Source: a virus. From it: 64,000 bases of DNA. The stretch lies in IMG/VR virus record IMGVR_UViG_3300021475_000010, positions 6,173 through 70,172 of that record. One strand, given 5' to 3'. Shown here one piece after another: positions 2,979 to 37,335 of the stretch; positions within the stretch are counted from its first letter, which is position 1; every line of letters starts with the position of its first letter. The position numbers and the translations under genes were made by a program. Below the pieces are notes generated by a model. That model worked only from the letters and a program-made list of their open reading frames with translations. It had not been told where the DNA came from and searched no databases.

Positions 2979-3137
2979 TCATGCAGCGGCGACCTGCGGC
3001 CTCGTGGCTTCCTGCAGCTTGGCCATGATCACGGCCGCACCGTTGTCGGTGTTCTCCTCAACGAGCGCCCTGGCGGCCCGCTCGTCTCCACCGTTGGTAA
3101 CCATCTCAGCCTCTACGGCTGCGTCCATCCCTGGCAT
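2979..3137 (-). CDS. hypothetical 52-aa protein (not in ORF track)
   Basis: AGGAGGCAGG RBS, MPGMDAAVEAEM..., directly downstream of promoter 3182-3210. Confidence 0.6.
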   Translation of the reverse strand: MPGMDAAVEAEMVTNGGDERAARALVEENTDNGAAVIMAKLQEATRPQVAAA

Positions 3138-3181: not shown

Positions 3182-3210
3182 AGTCTATACGAAAAGTCGT
3201 TCGAGCGCTA
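3182..3210 (-). promoter_or_regulatory. putative promoter TAGCGC-N17-TAGACT
   Basis: Member of a repeated promoter family; intergenic and upstream of an operon. Confidence 0.7.
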
Positions 3211-3220
3211 CTGCAAGAAT

Positions 3221-4138
3221 CTAGGCAGCTGCACGCCTGGTCGACTCCGGGTGTGCACGCCTGTAGGCTCGGAGTCCATCGATGGGGATGCGACCGTTAT
3301 GGCCAAGCTTGCCGCCTTGCTCGACCCACCATGCAGCTATCTCCATGTTCTTGGTCGTCGGGCGTGAACGCCTACCTGCAGGCCGTGAGGACTTGGGCCG
3401 GGTACGCGTGCGAGAAACCGAATGCAGGCGCGGTCCGGGTGGGCCCTGCGGCTCTGGGCGAGGCTGAGCCGGCGGCTTGGGCTTCTCAGGCTTGGGCGGC
3501 TTGGGCGCTGGCTCGGGCATGAGCACGGGCTGAGCGTCTTCCTCCAGCTTGAAGCGTGCAAGGTTGCCCTCGGTGATGAAGTCCCTTCGTGCACGAAGAC
3601 CATCGCGGTACTCCCTGAACGTGCCGCCGAGTAGGAGCCAGGTTGCAGGACCGTACCCGGACTTGGCCGAAGGGTGAACGTAGCCGTGCCTGATGAGCTG
3701 CTTCCGGTGAACCCAGCCTAGGTGCAGCTCGTACGCGAGGACGGCTGCGACGGGCGCGGTCGCCCAAACGATCCAGGCGTGTTCGTGCACCCAGAGCGCG
3801 GTGTCGCTGTGGAAGCTCTGCACGAATGCGCCGAGGGCTGCGAACGCGATAACGGTGGCTCGTGCAAGCCATCCGCTGAAACCCTTGCGCCGGTGCTTCA
3901 GGCCGATTCGTGCAGCGAAGAGCGCCACGCCGTCGAACGCTGCAGACATACCGGCTGCGAAGATCGGCGGCACGCCCACCGCCCGAGCGATCGTGTAGAA
4001 ACCGAGCCAGCTGATTGCGAGGATGGGAACGAGGATGCACGCCCACAGGAACTCTCCGGTTAGTGCATCCAGCACTTTCTTAGCTCTGTCCACTTTTCTG
4101 CCTTCCGTCTGGACGAGCTTTAAGCGTAACGCTCTCAC
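3221..4138 (-). CDS. DUF2637-like membrane protein with C-terminal Lsr2-like DNA-binding domain
   Basis: About 4 TM segments (SWLGFYTIARAVG, APVAAVLAYEL), Pro/Arg linker, C-terminal IAAWWVEQGGKLGHNGRIPIDGLRAY; start may be GTG 4075. Confidence 0.75.
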   Translation of the reverse strand: MRALRLKLVQTEGRKVDRAKKVLDALTGEFLWACILVPILAISWLGFYTIARAVGVPPIFAAGMSAAFDGVALFAARIGLKHRRKGFSGWLARATVIAFAALGAFVQSFHSDTALWVHEHAWIVWATAPVAAVLAYELHLGWVHRKQLIRHGYVHPSAKSGYGPATWLLLGGTFREYRDGLRARRDFITEGNLARFKLEEDAQPVLMPEPAPKPPKPEKPKPPAQPRPEPQGPPGPRLHSVSRTRTRPKSSRPAGRRSRPTTKNMEIAAWWVEQGGKLGHNGRIPIDGLRAYRRAHPESTRRAAA

Positions 4139-5723: not shown

Positions 5724-6896
5724 TTAGGCATCTGGATTATAGTCCTTAGCATAGCGTAGCGGAGCTATGTTACTACTACCAGACTGGCCTGCCTTTACTA
5801 GACAGTTGTTCACTACGAGTATCTGAATCGCGGCGCGGACGTGACGCGCTCCTGCGCCCTTGTATGCCTTCTCAATGTCGGCCTTGGCAGCGCCTGTCTT
5901 TCCGACTCGACGGTAGATGTCGAGCACCTTGTCGATAACGGCACGCGGAACGTCCTCGTATTCAGTGCCTTCGCGACGCGCATTGGCTCTATCCTTCACC
6001 ACGCTTCCACGCTCTGGGTGCTTAACGTCGACGCGAAGACTGAATCCATTCTCCTTGTCTCCAGTCGACTTGACGACGAGAGTACCTGCATACATCACGG
6101 TAGGGTCGCGCTCGATGCGAGCGCACTCTGACTTGACGAAGCCAGGCCTGTCCTTAGTCAGGATGATCCTCGACCGACCCACAGCGCCACGGATGATAGG
6201 ATCAATAGCCTCTAGCATATACGCCGCACCAGTGACCCAGTTGAGCTTAGCGATTCCGCCCGCCGCGTAACGAGAACCATTGTTCCTAGCATCAGCATTC
6301 ACCTTGGTGACATGGTCGGTTGTGATCACACATCGGCCTCGCTTCAGCAGAGGCGCGACGAGCGCACGACGGAACATCACAGGTGAGTTCGGGTCGAATA
6401 GCTCCCAGCCGAACAGTCCGTATGCGGACTGGAGCCCATTGAATATGACAAGGTCGCACCGATGCTCGACCGCATCCCACACCGAGTCCTGCGCTGCGTC
6501 GACATCCTCTGGAGTCGAGAACCTGAACAGCCATTGGTCACAGACGGCATCCCTGTCGGCACCCATCTCCCTGAGACGGCTGGCGATGTCTATCTCGTCG
6601 CCTTCCTCAAAGTCGATCCAGCACACAGAGTGCCCGAAGTCTAGCGCTTGCGACACTGTCTCTGCGAGCAGCATGTCCTTGCCCGCCTCGGTCGCGCCAT
6701 AGATAGCATTCTCCTTGCCGGCATAGAACATGAACTGCTTGTCTTCGCGCATACCGAATACAGGCTCTTCACGCTTCTTCTTGCCGTCGAATGCAGCCTG
6801 CATAGAATGCAGCTTGGCTGGCTTACGCCGACGCCGCTTGGCACGCTCGATGATGGAGTCCTCGGCCTGGACGGCGTGCATCTTAGGGGGCGGCAT
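5724..6896 (-). CDS. RecA-like/AAA ATPase, helicase partner of the Prim-Pol
   Basis: YGATEAGKD, WIDFEE, TDHVTK...RYAAGGIAKL, KDRPG motifs; coupled to the Prim-Pol. Confidence 0.75.
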   Translation of the reverse strand: MPPPKMHAVQAEDSIIERAKRRRRKPAKLHSMQAAFDGKKKREEPVFGMREDKQFMFYAGKENAIYGATEAGKDMLLAETVSQALDFGHSVCWIDFEEGDEIDIASRLREMGADRDAVCDQWLFRFSTPEDVDAAQDSVWDAVEHRCDLVIFNGLQSAYGLFGWELFDPNSPVMFRRALVAPLLKRGRCVITTDHVTKVNADARNNGSRYAAGGIAKLNWVTGAAYMLEAIDPIIRGAVGRSRIILTKDRPGFVKSECARIERDPTVMYAGTLVVKSTGDKENGFSLRVDVKHPERGSVVKDRANARREGTEYEDVPRAVIDKVLDIYRRVGKTGAAKADIEKAYKGAGARHVRAAIQILVVNNCLVKAGQSGSSNIAPLRYAKDYNPDA

Positions 6897-7906
6897 CAGA
6901 AGCCCTCCAACTCATCGCAGACCTCATCCTCTGCGGCTACCTCACCCCCATACCTCGCCACCGCTCCTGTCACCAGCGAGCGCCACTCCTGCACCGCCTT
7001 GCCTTCCCCGCGTCGGCGCTGACCCGCGCCACGCTGACCGAGCTTATAGATGAACAGCTCTCGCATCGGAGCGAGTGCAGCGTTGATGCCGACATGCCCT
7101 TCGGCCGCAGCCTTTACCAGCTGAGCGATGCCTAGCTTGGCCGCCTCATGCATCGAGCCGCCATTGCTCATGCCGTCCAGGACCCGCACGCCGATCGACT
7201 CAACATACCTGCACGGCTCGCCGACCCCATAGTCGATCAGCCACTGGCGCGCGGAGCCATCGAAGCTGCTCTCATTCCATCGCTCGTTGTCTCCGCCGGC
7301 CAGCCCGGTGAGGTAGTCGCACCACTCAGTAGGCAGTACCGACATATGCTGCGGAGTAGGCAGCTTGTCGAATGCGCGCATTTCCTTGAACGTATCGACT
7401 TGCCTGTACCAGCGGTACTGCCCGCCATTGCGATGTACCGACGGCGAGCAGATCACATACCGCTCATACCAGGTGATCATGTCGATGTCGACCGCAGCCT
7501 GAGACGGCCACGCACACGACACATAATCACCCGGCACGATGAACAGCCGGATACCGCTCACGCCGTCCGTCCGCGAGGTCGATACGAACGTCCCAGGTAG
7601 CGGGCCCAGCTTATCCTGCAGATCGCCTAGCGAATCGCCGCCATACTTGTCGTCGTACTCGTCTACATCCAGGCCCACGATCCACCGCGGCAGCCTGAGA
7701 GCTATGTTGGATCGGGCATACCTGTTAGCCCACATCCTGTTCGTCGTGTCGTCAGGCCAGACACCTTCGCGCCCGTGATACCCGCGTACCATAGGCTGCT
7801 TGTCCCTGACTCCGCCCTTCCAGATGGGCAGCGCTTCAGGCCATCCTGCCTTCACGTACCTAAGCGCGGCTTGTCCGTACGGACCTGTCCTTTCTTCGAG
7901 GCTCAT
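6896..7906 (-). CDS. bifunctional DNA primase/polymerase (Prim-Pol)
   Basis: ALRYVKAGW..LPI, NIALRL...VGLDVD, STSR..SGIRLF, YVICSPSVH. Confidence 0.9.
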   Translation of the reverse strand: MSLEERTGPYGQAALRYVKAGWPEALPIWKGGVRDKQPMVRGYHGREGVWPDDTTNRMWANRYARSNIALRLPRWIVGLDVDEYDDKYGGDSLGDLQDKLGPLPGTFVSTSRTDGVSGIRLFIVPGDYVSCAWPSQAAVDIDMITWYERYVICSPSVHRNGGQYRWYRQVDTFKEMRAFDKLPTPQHMSVLPTEWCDYLTGLAGGDNERWNESSFDGSARQWLIDYGVGEPCRYVESIGVRVLDGMSNGGSMHEAAKLGIAQLVKAAAEGHVGINAALAPMRELFIYKLGQRGAGQRRRGEGKAVQEWRSLVTGAVARYGGEVAAEDEVCDELEGF

Positions 7907-7910
7907 TCAG

Positions 7911-8156
7911 TTATCTCCTTGTTTGCAGAGCTGCCCTCACAGCCCTGACCCCGGCCCCGGAAAACTCCGGGTAGCGCGCTACTCGAAAGTAGGGTAGAAT
8001 CACGGTAGTGGCACCCCTCCTTAGTAGGTTGCCCAGTCTGCCGGACCCTGCCTTCCGCGCGACTGCACCGTAGGGCCCACCAGGTGTCGCGTTCCCCTGG
8101 TGGGCCCAGGTCGCAATTGAGGCCTGGACCAGCAAGCTGGTTTGGTCATGTCTCAT
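7911..8156 (-). CDS. possible leader ORF upstream of the Prim-Pol
   Basis: 81-aa ORF whose stop lies 4 nt before the Prim-Pol ATG; the protein sequence is unconvincing. Confidence 0.25.
   Translation of the reverse strand: MRHDQTSLLVQASIATWAHQGNATPGGPYGAVARKAGSGRLGNLLRRGATTVILPYFRVARYPEFSGAGVRAVRAALQTRR
7972..8000 (+). promoter_or_regulatory. putative promoter TAGCGC-N17-TAGAAT (antisense to the Prim-Pol leader)
   Basis: Matches the promoter family with 17-bp spacing. Confidence 0.6.
8007..8110 (+). ncRNA. putative ~100-nt counter-transcribed small RNA
   Basis: Lies between promoter 7972-8000 and a perfect 12-bp hairpin GGGCCCACCAGG/CCTGGTGGGCCC (8073-8107). Confidence 0.4.
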
Positions 8157-8181
8157 TCGGGCGAACGGACGTAACCTCCCT

Positions 8182-8210
8182 AGCCTACTACGGACGGGGC
8201 CGCTACGCTA
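8182..8210 (-). promoter_or_regulatory. putative promoter TAGCGT-N17-TAGGCT for the Prim-Pol operon
   Basis: Matches the promoter family with 17-bp spacing. Confidence 0.6.
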
Positions 8211-8217
8211 GACCACG

Positions 8218-9105
8218 ATGAAGGCAGGCATTGTGAGCAACAGCATATACGTCATGGGCGTCGACCCAGGCTTCACTTCCGGGGTCACCATTATCGGTGT
8301 ACCCTATCTCTCCATGTACGGGAACAGCCCGTACCATCGCAGCTACTTCGAGATGTTCGAAGTGTCCGGCAATTACGCCTCTCAGGCCCTCGAAATTGTG
8401 GATGCTACACGCGAGTTCTTCCCGCTCGCACTGGTCGTCGAGTCATTCTATCCGGCCAAGCCAATCACTAGCGAAGAGTACCTCAGCCCCGTCCATGTTG
8501 GCGACCGTATCGCCTTCTGCGTTGAGACTCACTACGTCCTCTGCCCCTTCTTCTGGCAGACGCCATCCCAGGCAATGGAGACGGCACCGGACTCTCGCCT
8601 GAAGCTCTGGAACCTATACAAGCCAGGCCCGGACCACATGAAGGATAGCACACGCCATGTCGTGACCTTCCTTCGACGCTGCCGCGAAGACACTCAGCTC
8701 CGCGACTCCGCATGGGGACCAGCCCAGGCCCGGACGCGCCCTGCAAAGCGGGGTTCCCGTCGCTCCCCGCGTCGGTTATACTTAACGTACGGACGCGCGA
8801 ACGGAAGGCAGACAACAGAGATGCTCCATACGGATAAGACAGACCAGGCACACAGGCTGCTCAGGAGCTACGCCCACACGCCAGGGCAGCAGCAGCAAGT
8901 CGATGAGACGTACGTCGACATCCTTGCTGACACCGACAACGAGGACACAGCGATCATGCACCTGGTCGGCCTCGTCCTCGACGGCATCCGGTTCGGCAAC
9001 TGGTTCTGGAACATGCCGCCTAATGCACAGACGGTCAGGTGCCCGGAGCACGGACACTCACATGCATACGGAGAGTCCCGCAGCCCGCGCAAGGGGCAGT
9101 ACTGA
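8218..9105 (+). CDS. RuvC-like Holliday junction resolvase, in frame with a probable separate downstream gene (8821-9105)
   Basis: MGVDPG..SG, LVVESF, QTPSQAM, HMKDSTRH motifs in the first ~165 aa; true start possibly GTG 8233. Confidence 0.75.
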   Translation: MKAGIVSNSIYVMGVDPGFTSGVTIIGVPYLSMYGNSPYHRSYFEMFEVSGNYASQALEIVDATREFFPLALVVESFYPAKPITSEEYLSPVHVGDRIAFCVETHYVLCPFFWQTPSQAMETAPDSRLKLWNLYKPGPDHMKDSTRHVVTFLRRCREDTQLRDSAWGPAQARTRPAKRGSRRSPRRLYLTYGRANGRQTTEMLHTDKTDQAHRLLRSYAHTPGQQQQVDETYVDILADTDNEDTAIMHLVGLVLDGIRFGNWFWNMPPNAQTVRCPEHGHSHAYGESRSPRKGQY

Positions 9106-9377
9106 TGGTCCGTCCATACATGGTAGCACTGCCCGAAGTGTTCCCCTACCTCATACGTGGTCCTCTCCACTCGATCGAGGGCATCGTCACCATGCTGATG
9201 CGTGGCGGCGTCGGCTGCCCTAACGGCTCATCGTTTGCCCTGACCAGTGAGGGCCCATCTGGCTACCGCTATCTCTACCTCAGCGAGGCCAGCTACAAGA
9301 CGCTGCTCGACGCCCACATCGTGCCCGGCTTGTTCCAGGTCGAGGTCAAGGAGGAAGCTACCAATGGGTCTGACTGA
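9105..9377 (+). CDS. hypothetical protein
   Basis: TGATG coupling. Confidence 0.55.
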   Translation: MVRPYMVALPEVFPYLIRGPLHSIEGIVTMLMRGGVGCPNGSSFALTSEGPSGYRYLYLSEASYKTLLDAHIVPGLFQVEVKEEATNGSD

Positions 9378-9934: not shown

Positions 9935-10326
9935 TGCAACCTGACTGGCCGGCGTGGGCCATGGTCCTCGCCGTAGCACTTGTCCTCACCATAATCTTCT
10001 TCGTCCGACGCGAATACAGGAGGCGTCCCCTTGCTCCCCAAGAGGTTGGACTGGTGGATAGCACACCACCTAGGCGAGGACTTCTACACCTTCCTATGGT
10101 ATCTCCATCTCGTACGCAACGAGCCCCCGCCGACGAAATGCCGTGGAACAGACCGCCAAGGAGATCCACCCGCATGAAGATATATCTCGTCACGGTCGCG
10201 GACCAGGCTGTCATCAATGCTCTCGACGCGGCCATCGAGAGTGATGAGCCGCTCTTCATCGGAGACACGACCAACCACGGCCCGATCGCTGAGATTCAGG
10301 AGTACGTGAATGTCGACAGCCCCTAG
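9934..10326 (+). CDS. hypothetical membrane-anchored protein
   Basis: N-terminal TM helix; possible internal start at 10174. Confidence 0.5.
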   Translation: MQPDWPAWAMVLAVALVLTIIFFVRREYRRRPLAPQEVGLVDSTPPRRGLLHLPMVSPSRTQRAPADEMPWNRPPRRSTRMKIYLVTVADQAVINALDAAIESDEPLFIGDTTNHGPIAEIQEYVNVDSP

Positions 10327-11512
10327 GGCGGGCGTCCTGCTCGACCGCGACGGCACGATCATTGTCGACTATCACTACGTCGGCCACATCGAGCGTGTCC
10401 AGTTCATCCCAGGCGCCATCGAGGCAATTAGGCGCTTCAACGAGGCAGGCATCCCCGTCGCCATTGTCACGAACCAAGGCGGCGTAGCTCGCGGCTTCTA
10501 TCCAGAAGACAATGTCATGGAGGTTCATAGCTACATCCAGCGCATACTAGCGCAGCAGAACGCCTGGATCGACCTGTTCCTGTACAGTCCGTACCACCCG
10601 GACGCTAACACGGACAAGTACAGGGGCAACGACATCTGGCACAAGCCGAACGCTGGTATGGCACGCGCAGCAGCGCGGAGTCTCAGCCTCGACCTCACGC
10701 AATGCTTCGTCGTTGGAGACCGGCCTACCGATGTCGAGATGGCGCGCCGGATCGGAGCCACGGCAATCTACCTCGGCGCGGAGCCTATACCGTTCTACCA
10801 CTACGCTAACGAACAGACCGTATCATTCAAATCACTAGGTGACGCAGCAACCTACATCATCGAGAGGATCACGGGTATGTCTCACAGCGAGTTCCCGACC
10901 ATGCGGTACTCAGGTGTCATCAGCTTCTTCCAGCACTACTCCGACGAGATCACCTCCACGCTCAGCCAGGTCAACAAGTTCGAGGTCGAGCTGGCAGTCG
11001 AGCACCTGTACAAGGCGTACAGCGATGGCTCCGCAGTCTGGGTCGCCGGCAACGGCGGAGCTGCAGCTATCGCGGACCACATGGCGACCGATCACGCCAA
11101 GCACATGGCCGCGACCGACACGCTGTTCCATAACGTGCACAGCCTTGCGGCGAACAACGTACTCTCCACGGCACTCGCCAACGACATCGGCTATGACGCC
11201 GTGTTCTCTTGGCAGCTCGAACAGTTCGGCGTCAAGGGTGACGTGTTCGTCGTGTTCTCCGTATCCGGCGAGAGCAAGAACATCATCCGCGGCCTCCAGG
11301 CAGCCAAAGAGCTAGGCATGGTCTCCATCGCCATCGTCGGCGGCGAGGCCGTCACCATCAAGGACGCGAACCTGGCCAACGTAACCATCACCATCCCGGC
11401 AACGAACTACGGCGTGGTCGAGGATGTCATGTCGATCATCCAGCACGCCCTCGCTCAGTACATCAGACAGACACAGATGACCGACAAGCAGATCCAGTCC
11501 GCTAGGTTCTAG
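10310..11512 (+). CDS. gmhB-gmhA: fused D,D-heptose-1,7-bisphosphate phosphatase (HAD IIIA) / phosphoheptose isomerase (SIS)
   Basis: LLDRDGTI, VTNQGGVARG, KPNAGM, VGDRPTD; then AGNGG...ADH, TALANDIGY..VF..QL, FSVSGESKNII. Confidence 0.92.
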   Translation: MSTAPRAGVLLDRDGTIIVDYHYVGHIERVQFIPGAIEAIRRFNEAGIPVAIVTNQGGVARGFYPEDNVMEVHSYIQRILAQQNAWIDLFLYSPYHPDANTDKYRGNDIWHKPNAGMARAAARSLSLDLTQCFVVGDRPTDVEMARRIGATAIYLGAEPIPFYHYANEQTVSFKSLGDAATYIIERITGMSHSEFPTMRYSGVISFFQHYSDEITSTLSQVNKFEVELAVEHLYKAYSDGSAVWVAGNGGAAAIADHMATDHAKHMAATDTLFHNVHSLAANNVLSTALANDIGYDAVFSWQLEQFGVKGDVFVVFSVSGESKNIIRGLQAAKELGMVSIAIVGGEAVTIKDANLANVTITIPATNYGVVEDVMSIIQHALAQYIRQTQMTDKQIQSARF

Positions 11513-16581: not shown

Positions 16582-16728
16582 TGGGGAAGCACGGACCCAC
16601 CGCAAAGCTATGGCCAAGCATCCTCGGCCTCGTCGCTGCAGCATGCGCGGTCGCGGCGCTCCTTATCCTGGTCTTCGCTTTTCCGCAATGGCACCCATAG
16701 GTCGCCGGAAAATACCTGGTCGGACGAT

Positions 16729-16757
16729 TCGACTTTCGGCCTAAAGTACGGTAGACT
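16729..16757 (+). promoter_or_regulatory. putative promoter TCGACT-N17-TAGACT
   Basis: Near-identical to 32681-32709 and 22186-22214. Confidence 0.8.
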
Positions 16758-16805: not shown

Positions 16806-18128
16806 GTGCCAACATCAAGAGACGAGCTTCTGCGGCCGGTACTACCGGACGACGCGCTGTACGGTCTTCCAGGCAGGGTCGCGCTGAAGCTCGCCGAATC
16901 AACCGGGGCTGACCCGGCTTCGATTCTCGGTATGTTCATGACGAGCTTCGGCAACGCGATAGGCAGGCAGCCGCACGTCATGTTCTACGGCCACGACGAG
17001 CCTGGACTGCTGTTCACACTGATCGTCGGCAAGTGGGCTCGCGGCCGTAAGGGTACGGCGTGGAACGCAGTCAAGAAGCTGTTCGGTCAGGCTGAGCCAG
17101 AGTGGTCAGCAAACCGGATCGAGTCCGGGCTCCAGTCGTCTGAGGCAATGATCGAGGCCGTCGCGGACAGCCCGAACGGTGACCCGAGACTGCTGATCCT
17201 GGAGACTGAGTTCGCCCGGTTCATTGCAGCGATGTCGGCTCAGCGCAAGTTCGCCTCGCGGATGCGTACCGCGTACGACGGCGAGACGCTAGCCGCAAGG
17301 CGGGTCAAGCAGCCACCGCTGATCTCAACGCAGCACATGATCAGCATCATCGGCATGATCACTCCGGGCGAGCTACTCGCCCTGATGAAGATGTCGGGCG
17401 GGCTCGAAAGCAGGATGCTCTATTTCTACTCCGCCCCCGCGCGTAAGACAAGAACCGATCCGTTCAAGGTTGACGAGAGCGAGATCAACCTAGCCGATGA
17501 GGTCAAGGAAGCGATCGGGCACGCGTGGGATAGCATACTGCTAACATGCGGGCCGATCACCGCTGCACTGGCAGAGCTGCGGGGCGTCGCTCCCAAGACC
17601 AAGTTCCCGATCGCCGATGACGTCGCGGAACGGTGGAAGGATGAGATCGAGCCTGCAATCGAGGACATCGCCGACGCTGTAGGCGAGGACTACGAGCGCT
17701 ACACGGCCCGAGCCCAGACGCACGTTGTCCGTCTCGCCCTACTCTACGCGCTCGCGGACGGGGCAAGCGAGATAGACTGGCCGCACATCAAGGCAGCGAT
17801 GGCGCTTACCGAGTTCTGCATGTTCTCGGCGCGGCGTATCTTCTCTGTCCCCGACGATCCCAAGCCGAAGATCAGCCCGCTCCAAGAGGGCAAGGTGTTC
17901 GACTTCCTGCTGGAACTGACGCGGGACGCGGAACTGTCGGGAGACGAGGATGACGCCTGGGCGTCAATCGTCGAGATCACGAACGACGTGCTCAGCAACA
18001 ACACGCCGGGTACGCCGATCCTCGATGACCTCGAAGAGCAGGGGCTCGTGCAGAAGCGGACTATACGGACGGGGAATAAGGGCAAGCCCCGAGTCGAGTA
18101 CCGTGCAGTAATTAGTTCGTTAACTTAG
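16806..18128 (+). CDS. DUF3987/YfjI-like P-loop protein with C-terminal wHTH
   Basis: ALYGLPG, ADPA, LIVG...RGRKGTA, LILETEF, MRTAYDG, ISIIGMITP, RLALLYAL, G..GKP. Confidence 0.8.
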   Translation: MPTSRDELLRPVLPDDALYGLPGRVALKLAESTGADPASILGMFMTSFGNAIGRQPHVMFYGHDEPGLLFTLIVGKWARGRKGTAWNAVKKLFGQAEPEWSANRIESGLQSSEAMIEAVADSPNGDPRLLILETEFARFIAAMSAQRKFASRMRTAYDGETLAARRVKQPPLISTQHMISIIGMITPGELLALMKMSGGLESRMLYFYSAPARKTRTDPFKVDESEINLADEVKEAIGHAWDSILLTCGPITAALAELRGVAPKTKFPIADDVAERWKDEIEPAIEDIADAVGEDYERYTARAQTHVVRLALLYALADGASEIDWPHIKAAMALTEFCMFSARRIFSVPDDPKPKISPLQEGKVFDFLLELTRDAELSGDEDDAWASIVEITNDVLSNNTPGTPILDDLEEQGLVQKRTIRTGNKGKPRVEYRAVISSLT

Positions 18129-18130: not shown

Positions 18131-18180
18131 CGACCGCCTCGACAAACCTACTAAGGAAACTAAGGAATAAGGACAAGACC

Positions 18181-20094: not shown

Positions 20095-20132
20095 GCGGAC
20101 GCCCCTAGCACCCTACCGCTAGGGGCGTCCGC
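20095..20132 (+). terminator. terminator hairpin
   Basis: Perfect 15-bp stem GCGGACGCCCCTAGC/GCTAGGGGCGTCCGC. Confidence 0.75.
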
Positions 20133-22069: not shown

Positions 22070-22168
22070 GGGGCGTCCAGCCGCTGACCTGACTGGGCGC
22101 CCCTGCCCCATGTAAGACCTGTCTCGGGGGCAAGGGCCCAGTGGTGTCGAGGTGACCACTGGGCCCTT
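22070..22168 (+). terminator. three consecutive hairpins (terminator or 3' structure)
   Basis: Stems at 22070-22103, 22104-22132 and 22132-22168 (AAGGGCCCAGTGGT/ACCACTGGGCCCTT). Confidence 0.6.
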
Positions 22169-22185
22169 CCGCATTTCTAGGGGGC

Positions 22186-22214
22186 TAGACTTTCCGCCGT
22201 TCGTACGGTAGACT
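22186..22214 (+). promoter_or_regulatory. putative promoter TAGACT-N17-TAGACT
   Basis: Matches the promoter family. Confidence 0.8.
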
Positions 22215-23249: not shown

Positions 23250-24137
23250 ATGGCAACCAGGCGTCCATCAGCACCTCGACGGCGAGCGCGGAGCAGTACC
23301 GGTCAAGGCGACGGCAACGTTACCACTCTCCATGCCGTCCGCGAACGGCCCAAGATCACGGTCAAGGTTGAAGAACTCTCTGACTTCAACGAATCGTTCA
23401 ACTGGTGCATCTACGGTGACAGCGGCGCAGGCAAGACGGTGTTCGGATCGTTCGCTCCAGGCGGCTATATCCTTAGCACTGAGAAGGGCGTCATATCGGC
23501 CAAGCGTGTCGGCTCCAAGGCCAAGCTACTCCGCGCCCCGGATTGGGATCATGTTGAGGTCAGCATCGAGTGGGCCGACAAACACCTCGGGCCCAAGCAT
23601 GTACTCATCGTCGACAGCGTCACGAAGATGCAGGACATGGCCCTCGACTGGTGGCTCGGTATCCAGCACGACGAGAACGCCGCGCGGGACAGGGACATAC
23701 CGCAGATTCAAGACCACCAGAAGTGGCAGCGTATGTTCATGAGGTTCATCAACCACCTCATCGACGCCAAGTACAACACCATCTTCATAGCCACGGCGAT
23801 GCGCAAGGAAGATGAAGAGGGCGACGACCTTGTGCTGCCGAACATCGTCGGCAAGGACTACGCCATCGCTCAGAACTTCTGCGCGGCCATGGACATCGTG
23901 TCCTGCCTCCGCGTCAAGAAGCGTAGCAACATGGACGACCCGCGCGAGTCTCTGCTCATCAACGACACGTTCCCGCCGTACTTCGCGAAGGACAGGTTCA
24001 ATGTCCTGCCCCGGTGGGAGACCATACCAGACGGTGAAGACGAAGAGAATGGAGGGTACGACTCGATAGCAGGCATGATCGAAGACATCATGGCGCTAGC
24101 GCCGGAAGAACGACAGGCAGCAAAGGCAGGAAGGTAA
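23250..24137 (+). CDS. AAA_24 / Sak4-like ATPase (recombinase)
   Basis: IYGDSGAGKT, LIVDSVT, FAKDRF; located between the exonuclease and the SSB-like gene. Confidence 0.85.
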   Translation: MATRRPSAPRRRARSSTGQGDGNVTTLHAVRERPKITVKVEELSDFNESFNWCIYGDSGAGKTVFGSFAPGGYILSTEKGVISAKRVGSKAKLLRAPDWDHVEVSIEWADKHLGPKHVLIVDSVTKMQDMALDWWLGIQHDENAARDRDIPQIQDHQKWQRMFMRFINHLIDAKYNTIFIATAMRKEDEEGDDLVLPNIVGKDYAIAQNFCAAMDIVSCLRVKKRSNMDDPRESLLINDTFPPYFAKDRFNVLPRWETIPDGEDEENGGYDSIAGMIEDIMALAPEERQAAKAGR

Positions 24138-32665: not shown

Positions 32666-32680
32666 CTCTCAGCTCGCGAT

Positions 32681-32709
32681 TCGACTTTCGGCCGTTCGTA
32701 CGGTAGACT
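32681..32709 (+). promoter_or_regulatory. putative promoter TCGACT-N17-TAGACT
   Basis: Matches the promoter family. Confidence 0.8.
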
Positions 32710-35680: not shown

Positions 35681-35702
35681 CAGCAGCCAAAGGCAGGGCA
35701 GC

Positions 35703-37241: not shown

Positions 37242-37251
37242 CTCCACAAGC

Positions 37252-37296
37252 GAACGGCCGGCCAGGCTCTCCCGAGACAGGACTGGTCGGCCGTTC
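37252..37296. terminator. terminator hairpin between the convergent genome arms
   Basis: GAACGGCCGGCCAG pairs with CTGGTCGGCCGTTC. Confidence 0.75.
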
Positions 37297-37335
37297 CCTT
37301 TGCCTAGATGTTCTCGACCGTCACATCCCCGACGG

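Follow-up and report, generated by a model that had tools for sequence, protein, structure and literature searches.

A conserved candidate antisense RNA opposite the Prim-Pol leader of a probable actinophage

RNA-level control of replication initiators is a textbook feature of plasmids; in actinobacterial phages, about whose early regulation little is understood, such control is to our knowledge barely documented. In the CopA/CopT/tap/repA system of plasmid R1 (IncFII), a promoter that lies in the replication gene's leader gives rise to a counter-transcript of ~100 nt, and in ColE2, RNAI inhibits translation of the Rep primase. Small phage RNAs with terminal hairpins, including lambda OOP, P22 sar, P1/P7 c4, and P4 CI, repress a neighboring gene by pairing, and P4 CI limits the operon that contains its primase gene. 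Facing promoters form convergent-promoter switches in pCF10 (prgQ/prgX with Anti-Q) and in coliphage 186 (pR/pL). Further reported examples are the antisense RNAII of pMV158, which inhibits translation of the initiator gene repB (PMC4485353), and the convergent-promoter switches scbA/scbR of S. coelicolor (PMC3134472) and RnaG/icsA (PMC2879508). Here we describe a locus in a 64,000-nt stretch of DNA from an uncultured soil phage (the window; bases 6173-70172 of the 70,172-bp IMG/VR virus record IMGVR_UViG_3300021475_000010, CheckV completeness 100%), in which a leftward Prim-Pol gene and a rightward RuvC-like resolvase gene are separated by an intergenic gap of 311 nt that holds two predicted, face-to-face promoters and a conserved structured RNA unit.

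The initial annotation of this DNA had proposed a plasmid-style layout of the CopA/tap kind. Its facing promoters, structured unit, plus-strand hairpin, and anti-Shine-Dalgarno sequence withstood closer analysis, and its trans target, its 81-codon leader gene, and a reading of the hairpin as a canonical terminator did not. The reading we prefer, in which our confidence is evenly divided, is a conserved cis-antisense module in which an RNA of ~108 nt made from the rightward promoter would pair with the Prim-Pol leader and limit Prim-Pol expression, aided by polymerase collision.

Conserved promoters and a conserved RNA unit opposite the Prim-Pol leader

The Prim-Pol gene (6896..7906, minus strand, ATG at 7906) encodes a protein of 336 aa matching Pfam PF09250 (E = 1e-16), and 54 homologues were found in metagenomes. 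A scan of JGI metagenome contigs gave 11 loci, 10 of which include upstream DNA. With two identical pairs (L012 = L021 and L017 = L018), these provide seven unique relatives of the RNA unit (L012, L014, L015, L016, L017, L019, and L020), L013 being a fragment only. The window and these relatives are the eight unique sequences to which the counts below refer; Prim-Pol identity to the relatives is 57 to 85%.

The rightward promoter, P_right (7972..8000, plus strand), consists of a −35-like TAGCGC (7972-7977), a 17-nt spacer, and the −10 hexamer TAGAAT (7995-8000), with a start expected at ~8007. The leftward promoter, P_left (8182..8210, minus strand), has a −35-like TAGCGT (8210..8205), again a 17-nt spacer, and the −10 hexamer TAGGCT (8187..8182), with a start expected at ~8175. 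Both had been proposed at these positions in the initial annotation, and both proved to be above chance and conserved. The combined pattern TAGCGY-N17-TAGNNT has three copies in the window, against 0.14 expected, and none of 100 shuffles reached three. The third copy (3210..3182, minus strand) lies in the intergenic gap upstream of a minus-strand open reading frame (ORF) of 52 codons (2979..3137), whose ribosome-binding site (RBS), AGGAGGCAGG, mixes both RBS types of the phage. We propose that P_right and P_left represent one phage-specific promoter type, TAGCGY-N17-TAGRMT; a generic sigma-70 scan called neither of them.

At P_right, T1, A2, A4, and T6 of the −10 hexamer are kept in all eight sequences in the same alignment column (TAGAAT in six, TAGACT and TATACT in one each), and TAGCGC stands 17 nt upstream in six of the eight. 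The hexamer varies at its positions 3 and 5, which are codon positions 1 and 2 of the overlapping minus-strand ORF, and the wobble positions are invariant; changes at non-wobble codon positions indicate a promoter-type rather than a coding constraint. At P_left, the −10 hexamer fits TANNNT, the actinobacterial −10 motif, in all seven unique sequences that reach that far, and six of these seven also have a hexamer beginning with TAG at a distance of exactly 17 nt upstream, with unrelated spacer sequences. The predicted leader from P_left to the Prim-Pol ATG is ~269 nt long and contains the predicted P_right in the opposite orientation, as is characteristic of a counter-transcript promoter. Because the promoters face each other, the predicted transcripts overlap by ~170 nt.

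Downstream of P_right lies the candidate counter-transcript unit (8007..8114, plus strand), which RNAalifold folds into three stem-loops (SL): SL1 (8010-8033), SL2 (8040-8058), and SL3 (8059-8114). SL3 consists of an outer 5-bp helix (8059-8063/8110-8114, GCGAC/GUCGC) around an inner hairpin (8073-8107) with a perfect 12-bp stem and an 11-nt loop, so that the closing stem is a two-part structure of 17 bp; the outer helix explains the conserved GUCGC that follows the hairpin. The inner hairpin, already pointed out in the initial annotation, is above chance, since only four loci in the 64 kb have a perfect stem of at least 9 bp with a loop of 3 to 12 nt, and all four are intergenic. Identity of the four close relatives to the window is 88 to 95% in 8007-8117, compared with 82 to 83% in the first 450 nt of Prim-Pol and 23 to 59% in 8118-8181; the unconserved spacer between SL3 and P_left (8115..8181) varies in both length and sequence among the relatives. 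The conserved unit thus has a sharp 3′ boundary.

The fold of the unit as a whole exceeds chance. Its minimum free energy is −51.1 kcal/mol (z = −3.1), 96.2% of 239 alignment cells are paired, and 8 of the 30 pairs show compensatory changes; none of 500 shuffles reached the observed values, and sliding the pairing partners by one to three columns left 32 to 55% paired. The hairpin is 100% paired with 6 of its 13 pairs compensated, and the outer helix is 100% paired with 1 of 5 compensated. Wobble pairs in the closing stem are biased toward one strand: in 10 cells of SL3 the pair is G-U on the plus strand (A-C on the minus strand), and the reverse case occurs in none. Over all helices, the count is 17 versus 3 in favor of the plus strand, the strand on which the structure was derived. 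The plus-strand energy of SL3 lies between −33 and −36 kcal/mol in all eight sequences, and its minus-strand energy is −26 to −30 kcal/mol in the three divergent relatives (L015, L020, and L014), that is, 6 to 8.5 kcal/mol weaker. The wobble asymmetry and the constant plus-strand stability of SL3 favor an RNA read from the plus strand, antisense to the Prim-Pol leader, and across the eight sequences they point to RNA-level selection on that strand.

The element is compact, conserved, and supported by covariation, and it belongs to no Rfam family. An Rfam scan of 7000-9000 at E values up to 10 gave no match in 8001-8120; the only nearby match, to RT-13 on the minus strand (7925-7981), reached 21.6 bits where the gathering score is 69.1. 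With a covariance model trained on the eight sequences, neither the window nor 25 loci yielded another copy. Among deposited phages, megablast returned no close DNA relatives, and blastn returned only a 104-nt Prim-Pol patch in three Gordonia phage records. An IMG/VR scan with Prim-Pol recovered one locus, L002, which is distant and differently organized; IMG/VR scans with the RuvC-like protein, the Prim-Pol alignment, and the core motif gave no matches each, and one with the class-2 promoter 15-mer gave nine single matches, which were set aside. The core motif matched 3 times in 185,579 species genomes, the matches sharing only 18 to 19 nt. In the literature searched, neither a Prim-Pol antisense RNA in phages nor such an element was described.

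The Prim-Pol leader and a model of antisense control

The initial annotation had read an 81-codon ORF (7911..8156, minus strand) in the Prim-Pol leader. Its position was as described, and so was its stop, which leaves 4 nt to the Prim-Pol ATG (7906). Its codon score under a phage codon model is −0.19 per codon, compared with +0.08 to +0.47 in 15 confident genes; no Shine-Dalgarno sequence lies at a usable distance from the ATG at 8156; and the N-terminal two thirds fall in the variable, indel-rich spacer, with further 1-nt indels in the core of L015, L016, and L019. We therefore rejected the 81-codon ORF as a conserved gene, its part upstream of 8003 being unsupported as coding. The candidate leader ORF is instead its last 30 codons (7911..8003, minus strand), running from GTG 8003..8001 to the shared stop, TAA 7913..7911, 4 nt short of the Prim-Pol ATG. 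Its start lies 12 nt after the minus-strand RBS AAGGAGG (8022..8016) in the window, and about 9 to 12 nt after it across the sequences. AAGGAGG is invariant, and a homologous start codon is present in seven of the eight sequences (GTG in five, ATG in L014 and L015). Even with a shifted frame, the end of the short ORF falls within −28 to +5 of where Prim-Pol starts in six sequences (the window and five others). In L015, the leader ATG is in frame with Prim-Pol and the P_right −10 hexamer falls in codons 2 to 4; this ATG is most plausibly Prim-Pol's own start.

Two hairpins are predicted in the leftward leader. Leader hairpin B (7926..7947, minus strand) has an 8-bp stem, which 5 nt separate from the downstream Shine-Dalgarno sequence of Prim-Pol (AAGGAGA, 7920..7914). 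Compensatory changes occur in three of its nine predicted pairs, and one pair is a G-U on the minus strand only in three sequences, which implies that the leftward leader RNA also crosses this region. Leader hairpin A (7956..7971, minus strand), with a 6-bp stem that abuts the P_right −35 element, is weakly supported, and a compensated variant of it occurs in L013. One metagenomic Prim-Pol homologue, P0016 (372 aa), has a called N terminus that reaches 36 residues into the leader; this extension is another frame of the same conserved DNA, begins right after AAGGAGG, and reflects a leader that is open in frame with Prim-Pol.

The loops of the unit carry sequences complementary to two RBSs at this locus. 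CCUCCUU (8016..8022, plus strand), in or adjoining the SL1 loop, is the complement of the minus-strand AAGGAGG and occupies invariant columns, and CCCUGCCUUCC in the SL2 loop (8046..8056, plus strand), with an invariant CUGCC, is complementary to the GAAGGCAGG RBS at 8220-8228. The initial annotation had pointed out both motifs at DNA level, and both are present, as CCTCCTT at 8016-8022 and CCCTGCCTTCC at 8046-8056.

In the model we propose, transcription from P_right would yield an RNA whose first ~108 nt (8007-8114) form the three stems, with SL1 presenting CCUCCUU and SL2 presenting CUGCCUUCC. This predicted RNA would be fully complementary to the Prim-Pol leader, covering AAGGAGG and reaching to 4 nt short of the leader ORF start, from where the leader ORF would run through the two leader hairpins to its stop just ahead of Prim-Pol. 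Pairing would probably start loop to loop at SL1; it would block translation of the leader ORF and, through translational coupling, that of Prim-Pol, and it would create a long duplex open to cleavage. Polymerases from P_right and P_left would also collide, and block, cleavage, and collision would together lower expression of the Prim-Pol operon. In L015, the RNA would lie directly over Prim-Pol's own RBS and start codon, which makes translational repression of Prim-Pol the likely common denominator of the lineages. The variant series from direct overlap in L015 to a leader-ORF relay in the window lineage could show how such a circuit evolves. The model makes a testable prediction, an antisense RNA over the leader RBS ahead of Prim-Pol.

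Points of doubt and competing explanations

Several observations weigh against the antisense reading. The sample comprises only eight unique sequences, five of them close to one another, and no RNA sequencing run was listed with the phage sequence. SL1 and SL2 show little covariation, the RNAalifold consensus energy is equal on the two strands (−38.15 versus −38.17), and both the window and L016 have a perfectly palindromic hairpin. For the short leader ORF, L012/L021 carry GCG in place of the start codon, the peptide frame is unconserved (shifted in L016 and L019), an open frame of this kind is expected in 33 to 50% of shuffles per lineage, and the RBS-start spacing of 11 to 12 nt is long. 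Conservation of the ORF start and of AAGGAGG is moreover confounded, because both overlap with the opposite-strand promoter and RNA.

The 3′ end of the RNA adds to these doubts. None of the eight sequences has a U-tract after SL3, and a terminator scan of 7000-9200 returned none. As the hairpin is present and the U-tract absent, SL3 was rejected as a canonical intrinsic terminator; mycobacterial RNA polymerase has been reported to need the U-tract (PMC3993855). A discrete 3′ end at ~8114 is consequently not assured: the conserved stem and the conservation boundary fit an RNA 3′ end, and without a U-tract, and with read-through into the RuvC-like gene probably needed, this fit is incomplete. 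We found no other conserved promoter for the RuvC-like operon between SL3 and the RuvC-like gene, so P_right may simply be the promoter of the RuvC-like operon, and part of the transcription from it probably reads into that operon. Other long perfect or near-perfect GC-rich hairpins without a U-tract stand at operon ends in the window (20095-20132, 22132-22168, and ~37250-37300), which suggests that U-less stems mark 3′ ends in this phage; the hairpin at 22132-22168 begins its stem with GGGCCCA and its loop with TGTCG, as does the one at 8073-8107.

In the alternative that we consider possible if somewhat unlikely, P_right is the RuvC-like operon promoter, the conserved 108 nt are its structured 5′ leader, and any antisense effect is incidental. 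Such a leader could be a cis-regulatory, stabilizing, or processing element or a put/nut-like antitermination RNA, and within it the CUGCCUUC loop may hide the GAAGGCAGG RBS of the operon itself. This explanation draws on the lack of another conserved promoter before the gene, on an SL3 without a U-tract, on a second, 13-bp hairpin that lies on the same path in L012/L021 although the gene must be expressed, and on the rightward gene block, which runs for ~29 kb on one strand with internal hairpins. It is also favored by the 9-nt complementarity between 8047-8055 and the RuvC-like RBS (8220-8228), kept at 7 to 9 nt in all seven relatives; the energy of this duplex, however, is no better than that of shuffles in five of the seven. 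A leader of this kind would also have to accommodate conservation that ends sharply at ~8114-8117, at least ~100 nt before the gene, followed by a spacer of varying length. It leaves aside the fact that the L015 unit falls exactly over the Prim-Pol start region, and that P_left, and hence the overlap with the Prim-Pol leader, is conserved too.

Selection could instead act on the minus strand only, the block being the leader of the Prim-Pol mRNA, with its RBS, leader ORF, and structures, or perhaps a binding site for an autoregulatory protein, and the apparent P_right a by-product. The invariant AAGGAGG, the start codon kept in seven of eight sequences, the G-U pairs of hairpin B, which work on the minus strand alone, and the equal consensus energies would all suit this explanation. 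We nevertheless hold it to be improbable, because the SL3 wobbles stand at 10 cells to 0 for the plus strand, with a weaker minus-strand hairpin in the divergent relatives, because −10 substitutions follow a promoter rather than a codon-wobble pattern, and because the bipartite motif recurs at P_left and at 3210..3182. Quite improbable, in our judgment, is an element acting at the level of DNA, such as a replication origin, a single-strand initiation hairpin recognized by Prim-Pol, or regulator operators, for which the 12-bp palindrome GTAGCGCGCTAC at 7971-7982 or the hairpin arms are candidates. The position next to a primase gene, the perfect palindromy of the hairpin in the window, and the similar stem and loop starts of the hairpin at 22132-22168 fit such a role, and tolerance of G-T with a strand bias would be compatible as well with a hairpin formed by one strand as single-stranded DNA. 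A DNA element does not account for a −10/−35 pattern conserved at fixed spacing; the 12-bp palindrome is not kept in L016-L020, and hairpin arms that change freely while pairing is kept are a poor match for a sequence-specific duplex-DNA site. The least probable explanation, to which we give very little weight, is an RNA acting mainly in trans, with its CCUCC and CUGCCUUCC loops binding RBSs on other mRNAs of the phage or the host. The two motifs fall in invariant columns, and AAGGCAGG precedes several phage genes, but the motifs are explained by the cis partner and the covariance model found no second copy or target-like element. The only long outside match is an exact complementarity of 13 nt between 8018-8030 and 18145-18157, which the initial annotation had taken as a possible trans target. 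The complementarity exists, 25 to 37 nt upstream of the likely start GTG 18182; as a target it fails, being at chance level, since 73 of 300 composition-preserving shuffles of the RNA give at least 13 nt elsewhere in the window.

Returning to the cis-antisense module, an extension of it that we regard as unlikely is that a family of apparently lytic soil actinophages has adopted plasmid logic, a counter-transcript and leader-ORF coupling, to meter Prim-Pol, with the same RNA leading the opposing recombination operon and the two promoters and RNAs acting as a mutually exclusive replication/recombination switch. If true, the RNA would represent a family not recorded before, one that serves both as cis-antisense and as cis-leader, and the switch would order replication versus recombination during infection.

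The phage, its gene neighborhood, and described systems

The RuvC-like resolvase gene (8233..9105, plus strand; phrog_1981) starts at GTG 8233 behind the RBS at 8220-8228; in an alignment of relatives, this GTG is the conserved start and ATG 8218 is unconserved. The RBS-like motif AAGGCAGG precedes several plus-strand starts (8220-8228, 35690-35697, 571-578, and 24123-24130), among them those of the RuvC-like gene and gene 35703. In L012/L021, an insertion of ~70 nt between P_left and the RuvC-like RBS contains a perfect hairpin (12 to 13 bp) and, just ahead of the start codon of the RuvC-like gene, CAGG/CAGGCAGT-like repeats in tandem. For the RuvC-like protein, the homologues in 215 of 215 matching phage records belong to actinobacterial phages, many of them carrying an annotation as RuvC-like resolvase; as sequence searches of Pfam, NCBIfam, and PDB were blank, these annotated actinophage homologues are the sole route to its identity. 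The DnaE-like polymerase of the phage is closest to those of mycobacteriophages of the PBI1 type (46.6%). These two lines of evidence make an actinobacterial host likely.

The whole 70-kb record contains no match to the Phage_integrase, Resolvase (serine recombinase), ParB_N, or CbiA/ParA families. The phage looks lytic, and the missing integration and partition families argue against a plasmid-like lifestyle. With none of these families found, copy-number control fits poorly, and control of dosage or timing is the likelier role of the module.

Prim-Pol stands alone in this phage, at 336 aa (6896-7906, minus strand). A 440-aa protein encoded 9 kb away (16806-18128, plus strand) resembles phage "DNA primase" families (phrog_10514 and phrog_3022) in their C-terminal, helicase-side half only, so that a gene fused in other actinophages (L002, 849 aa) seems to be split and separately regulated here. 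A second promoter-like motif is present in three near-identical plus-strand copies (16728-16757, 22185-22214, and 32680-32709), each composed of TTCGAC or CTAGAC followed by TTTCGGCC and then CGTACGGTAGACTTA. All three are intergenic and precede rightward genes of the replication block (helicase-like 16806, exonuclease 22251, and gene 32904), and the motif is probably a middle-class promoter of the phage. Within the early and replication block, 10310-11512 (plus strand) encodes a 400-aa fusion of a HAD-type phosphatase and a SIS sugar isomerase (Pfam SIS_2, 1e-17; Hydrolase_like, 6e-11), an unusual metabolic gene for this position. A 305-aa protein (3221-4138, minus strand) matches DUF2637 weakly and, in its C-terminal part, is weakly Lsr2-like (phrog_1223, E = 0.0024), a hint that it is a phage-borne protein of the actinobacterial nucleoid-associated type. 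The TAGCGY-N17-TAGRMT consensus should be useful for annotating this uncultured phage group.

Compared with described systems, the locus is closest in layout to R1. As with CopA, the predicted counter-transcript promoter lies within the leader and the target is well upstream of the start of the replication gene; as with tap, a short candidate leader ORF has its RBS covered by or next to the target and ends at the start of the replication gene, although coupling through the leader ORF is weakly supported in the phage. Unlike in R1, the replication gene is a Prim-Pol gene in a phage without detectable plasmid-maintenance or integration genes, the 3′ stem lacks a U-tract, and the counter-transcript promoter may also feed the divergent operon. 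The phage RNA has no sequence or Rfam relationship to CopA, the scan of 7000-9000 at E values up to 10 having given no homology to a CopA-like family.

L015, in which the predicted RNA lies over the Prim-Pol RBS and start, would be the simplest form of such control and resembles pMV158 and ColE2, to whose RNAs the phage RNA has no homology; in the window lineage, in contrast, ~95 nt, two hairpins, and the leader ORF lie between the target and the Prim-Pol start. With the convergent-promoter switches the locus shares divergent genes, facing promoters, and overlapping 5′ leaders (here ~170 nt), so that polymerase collision and antisense pairing are both possible. It differs from them in that replication and recombination genes flank it rather than a lysis-lysogeny or signaling pair, no repressor is known, and attenuation at a terminator in the phage sense leader was not found. 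Like the phage antisense and immunity RNAs, the predicted RNA is small, has a terminal hairpin, and has a neighboring target, here the leader RBS before Prim-Pol; it differs from them in host phylum and in having no Rfam match at E values up to 10. The module would work in the manner of the plasmid counter-transcript systems; it belongs to none of their RNA families.

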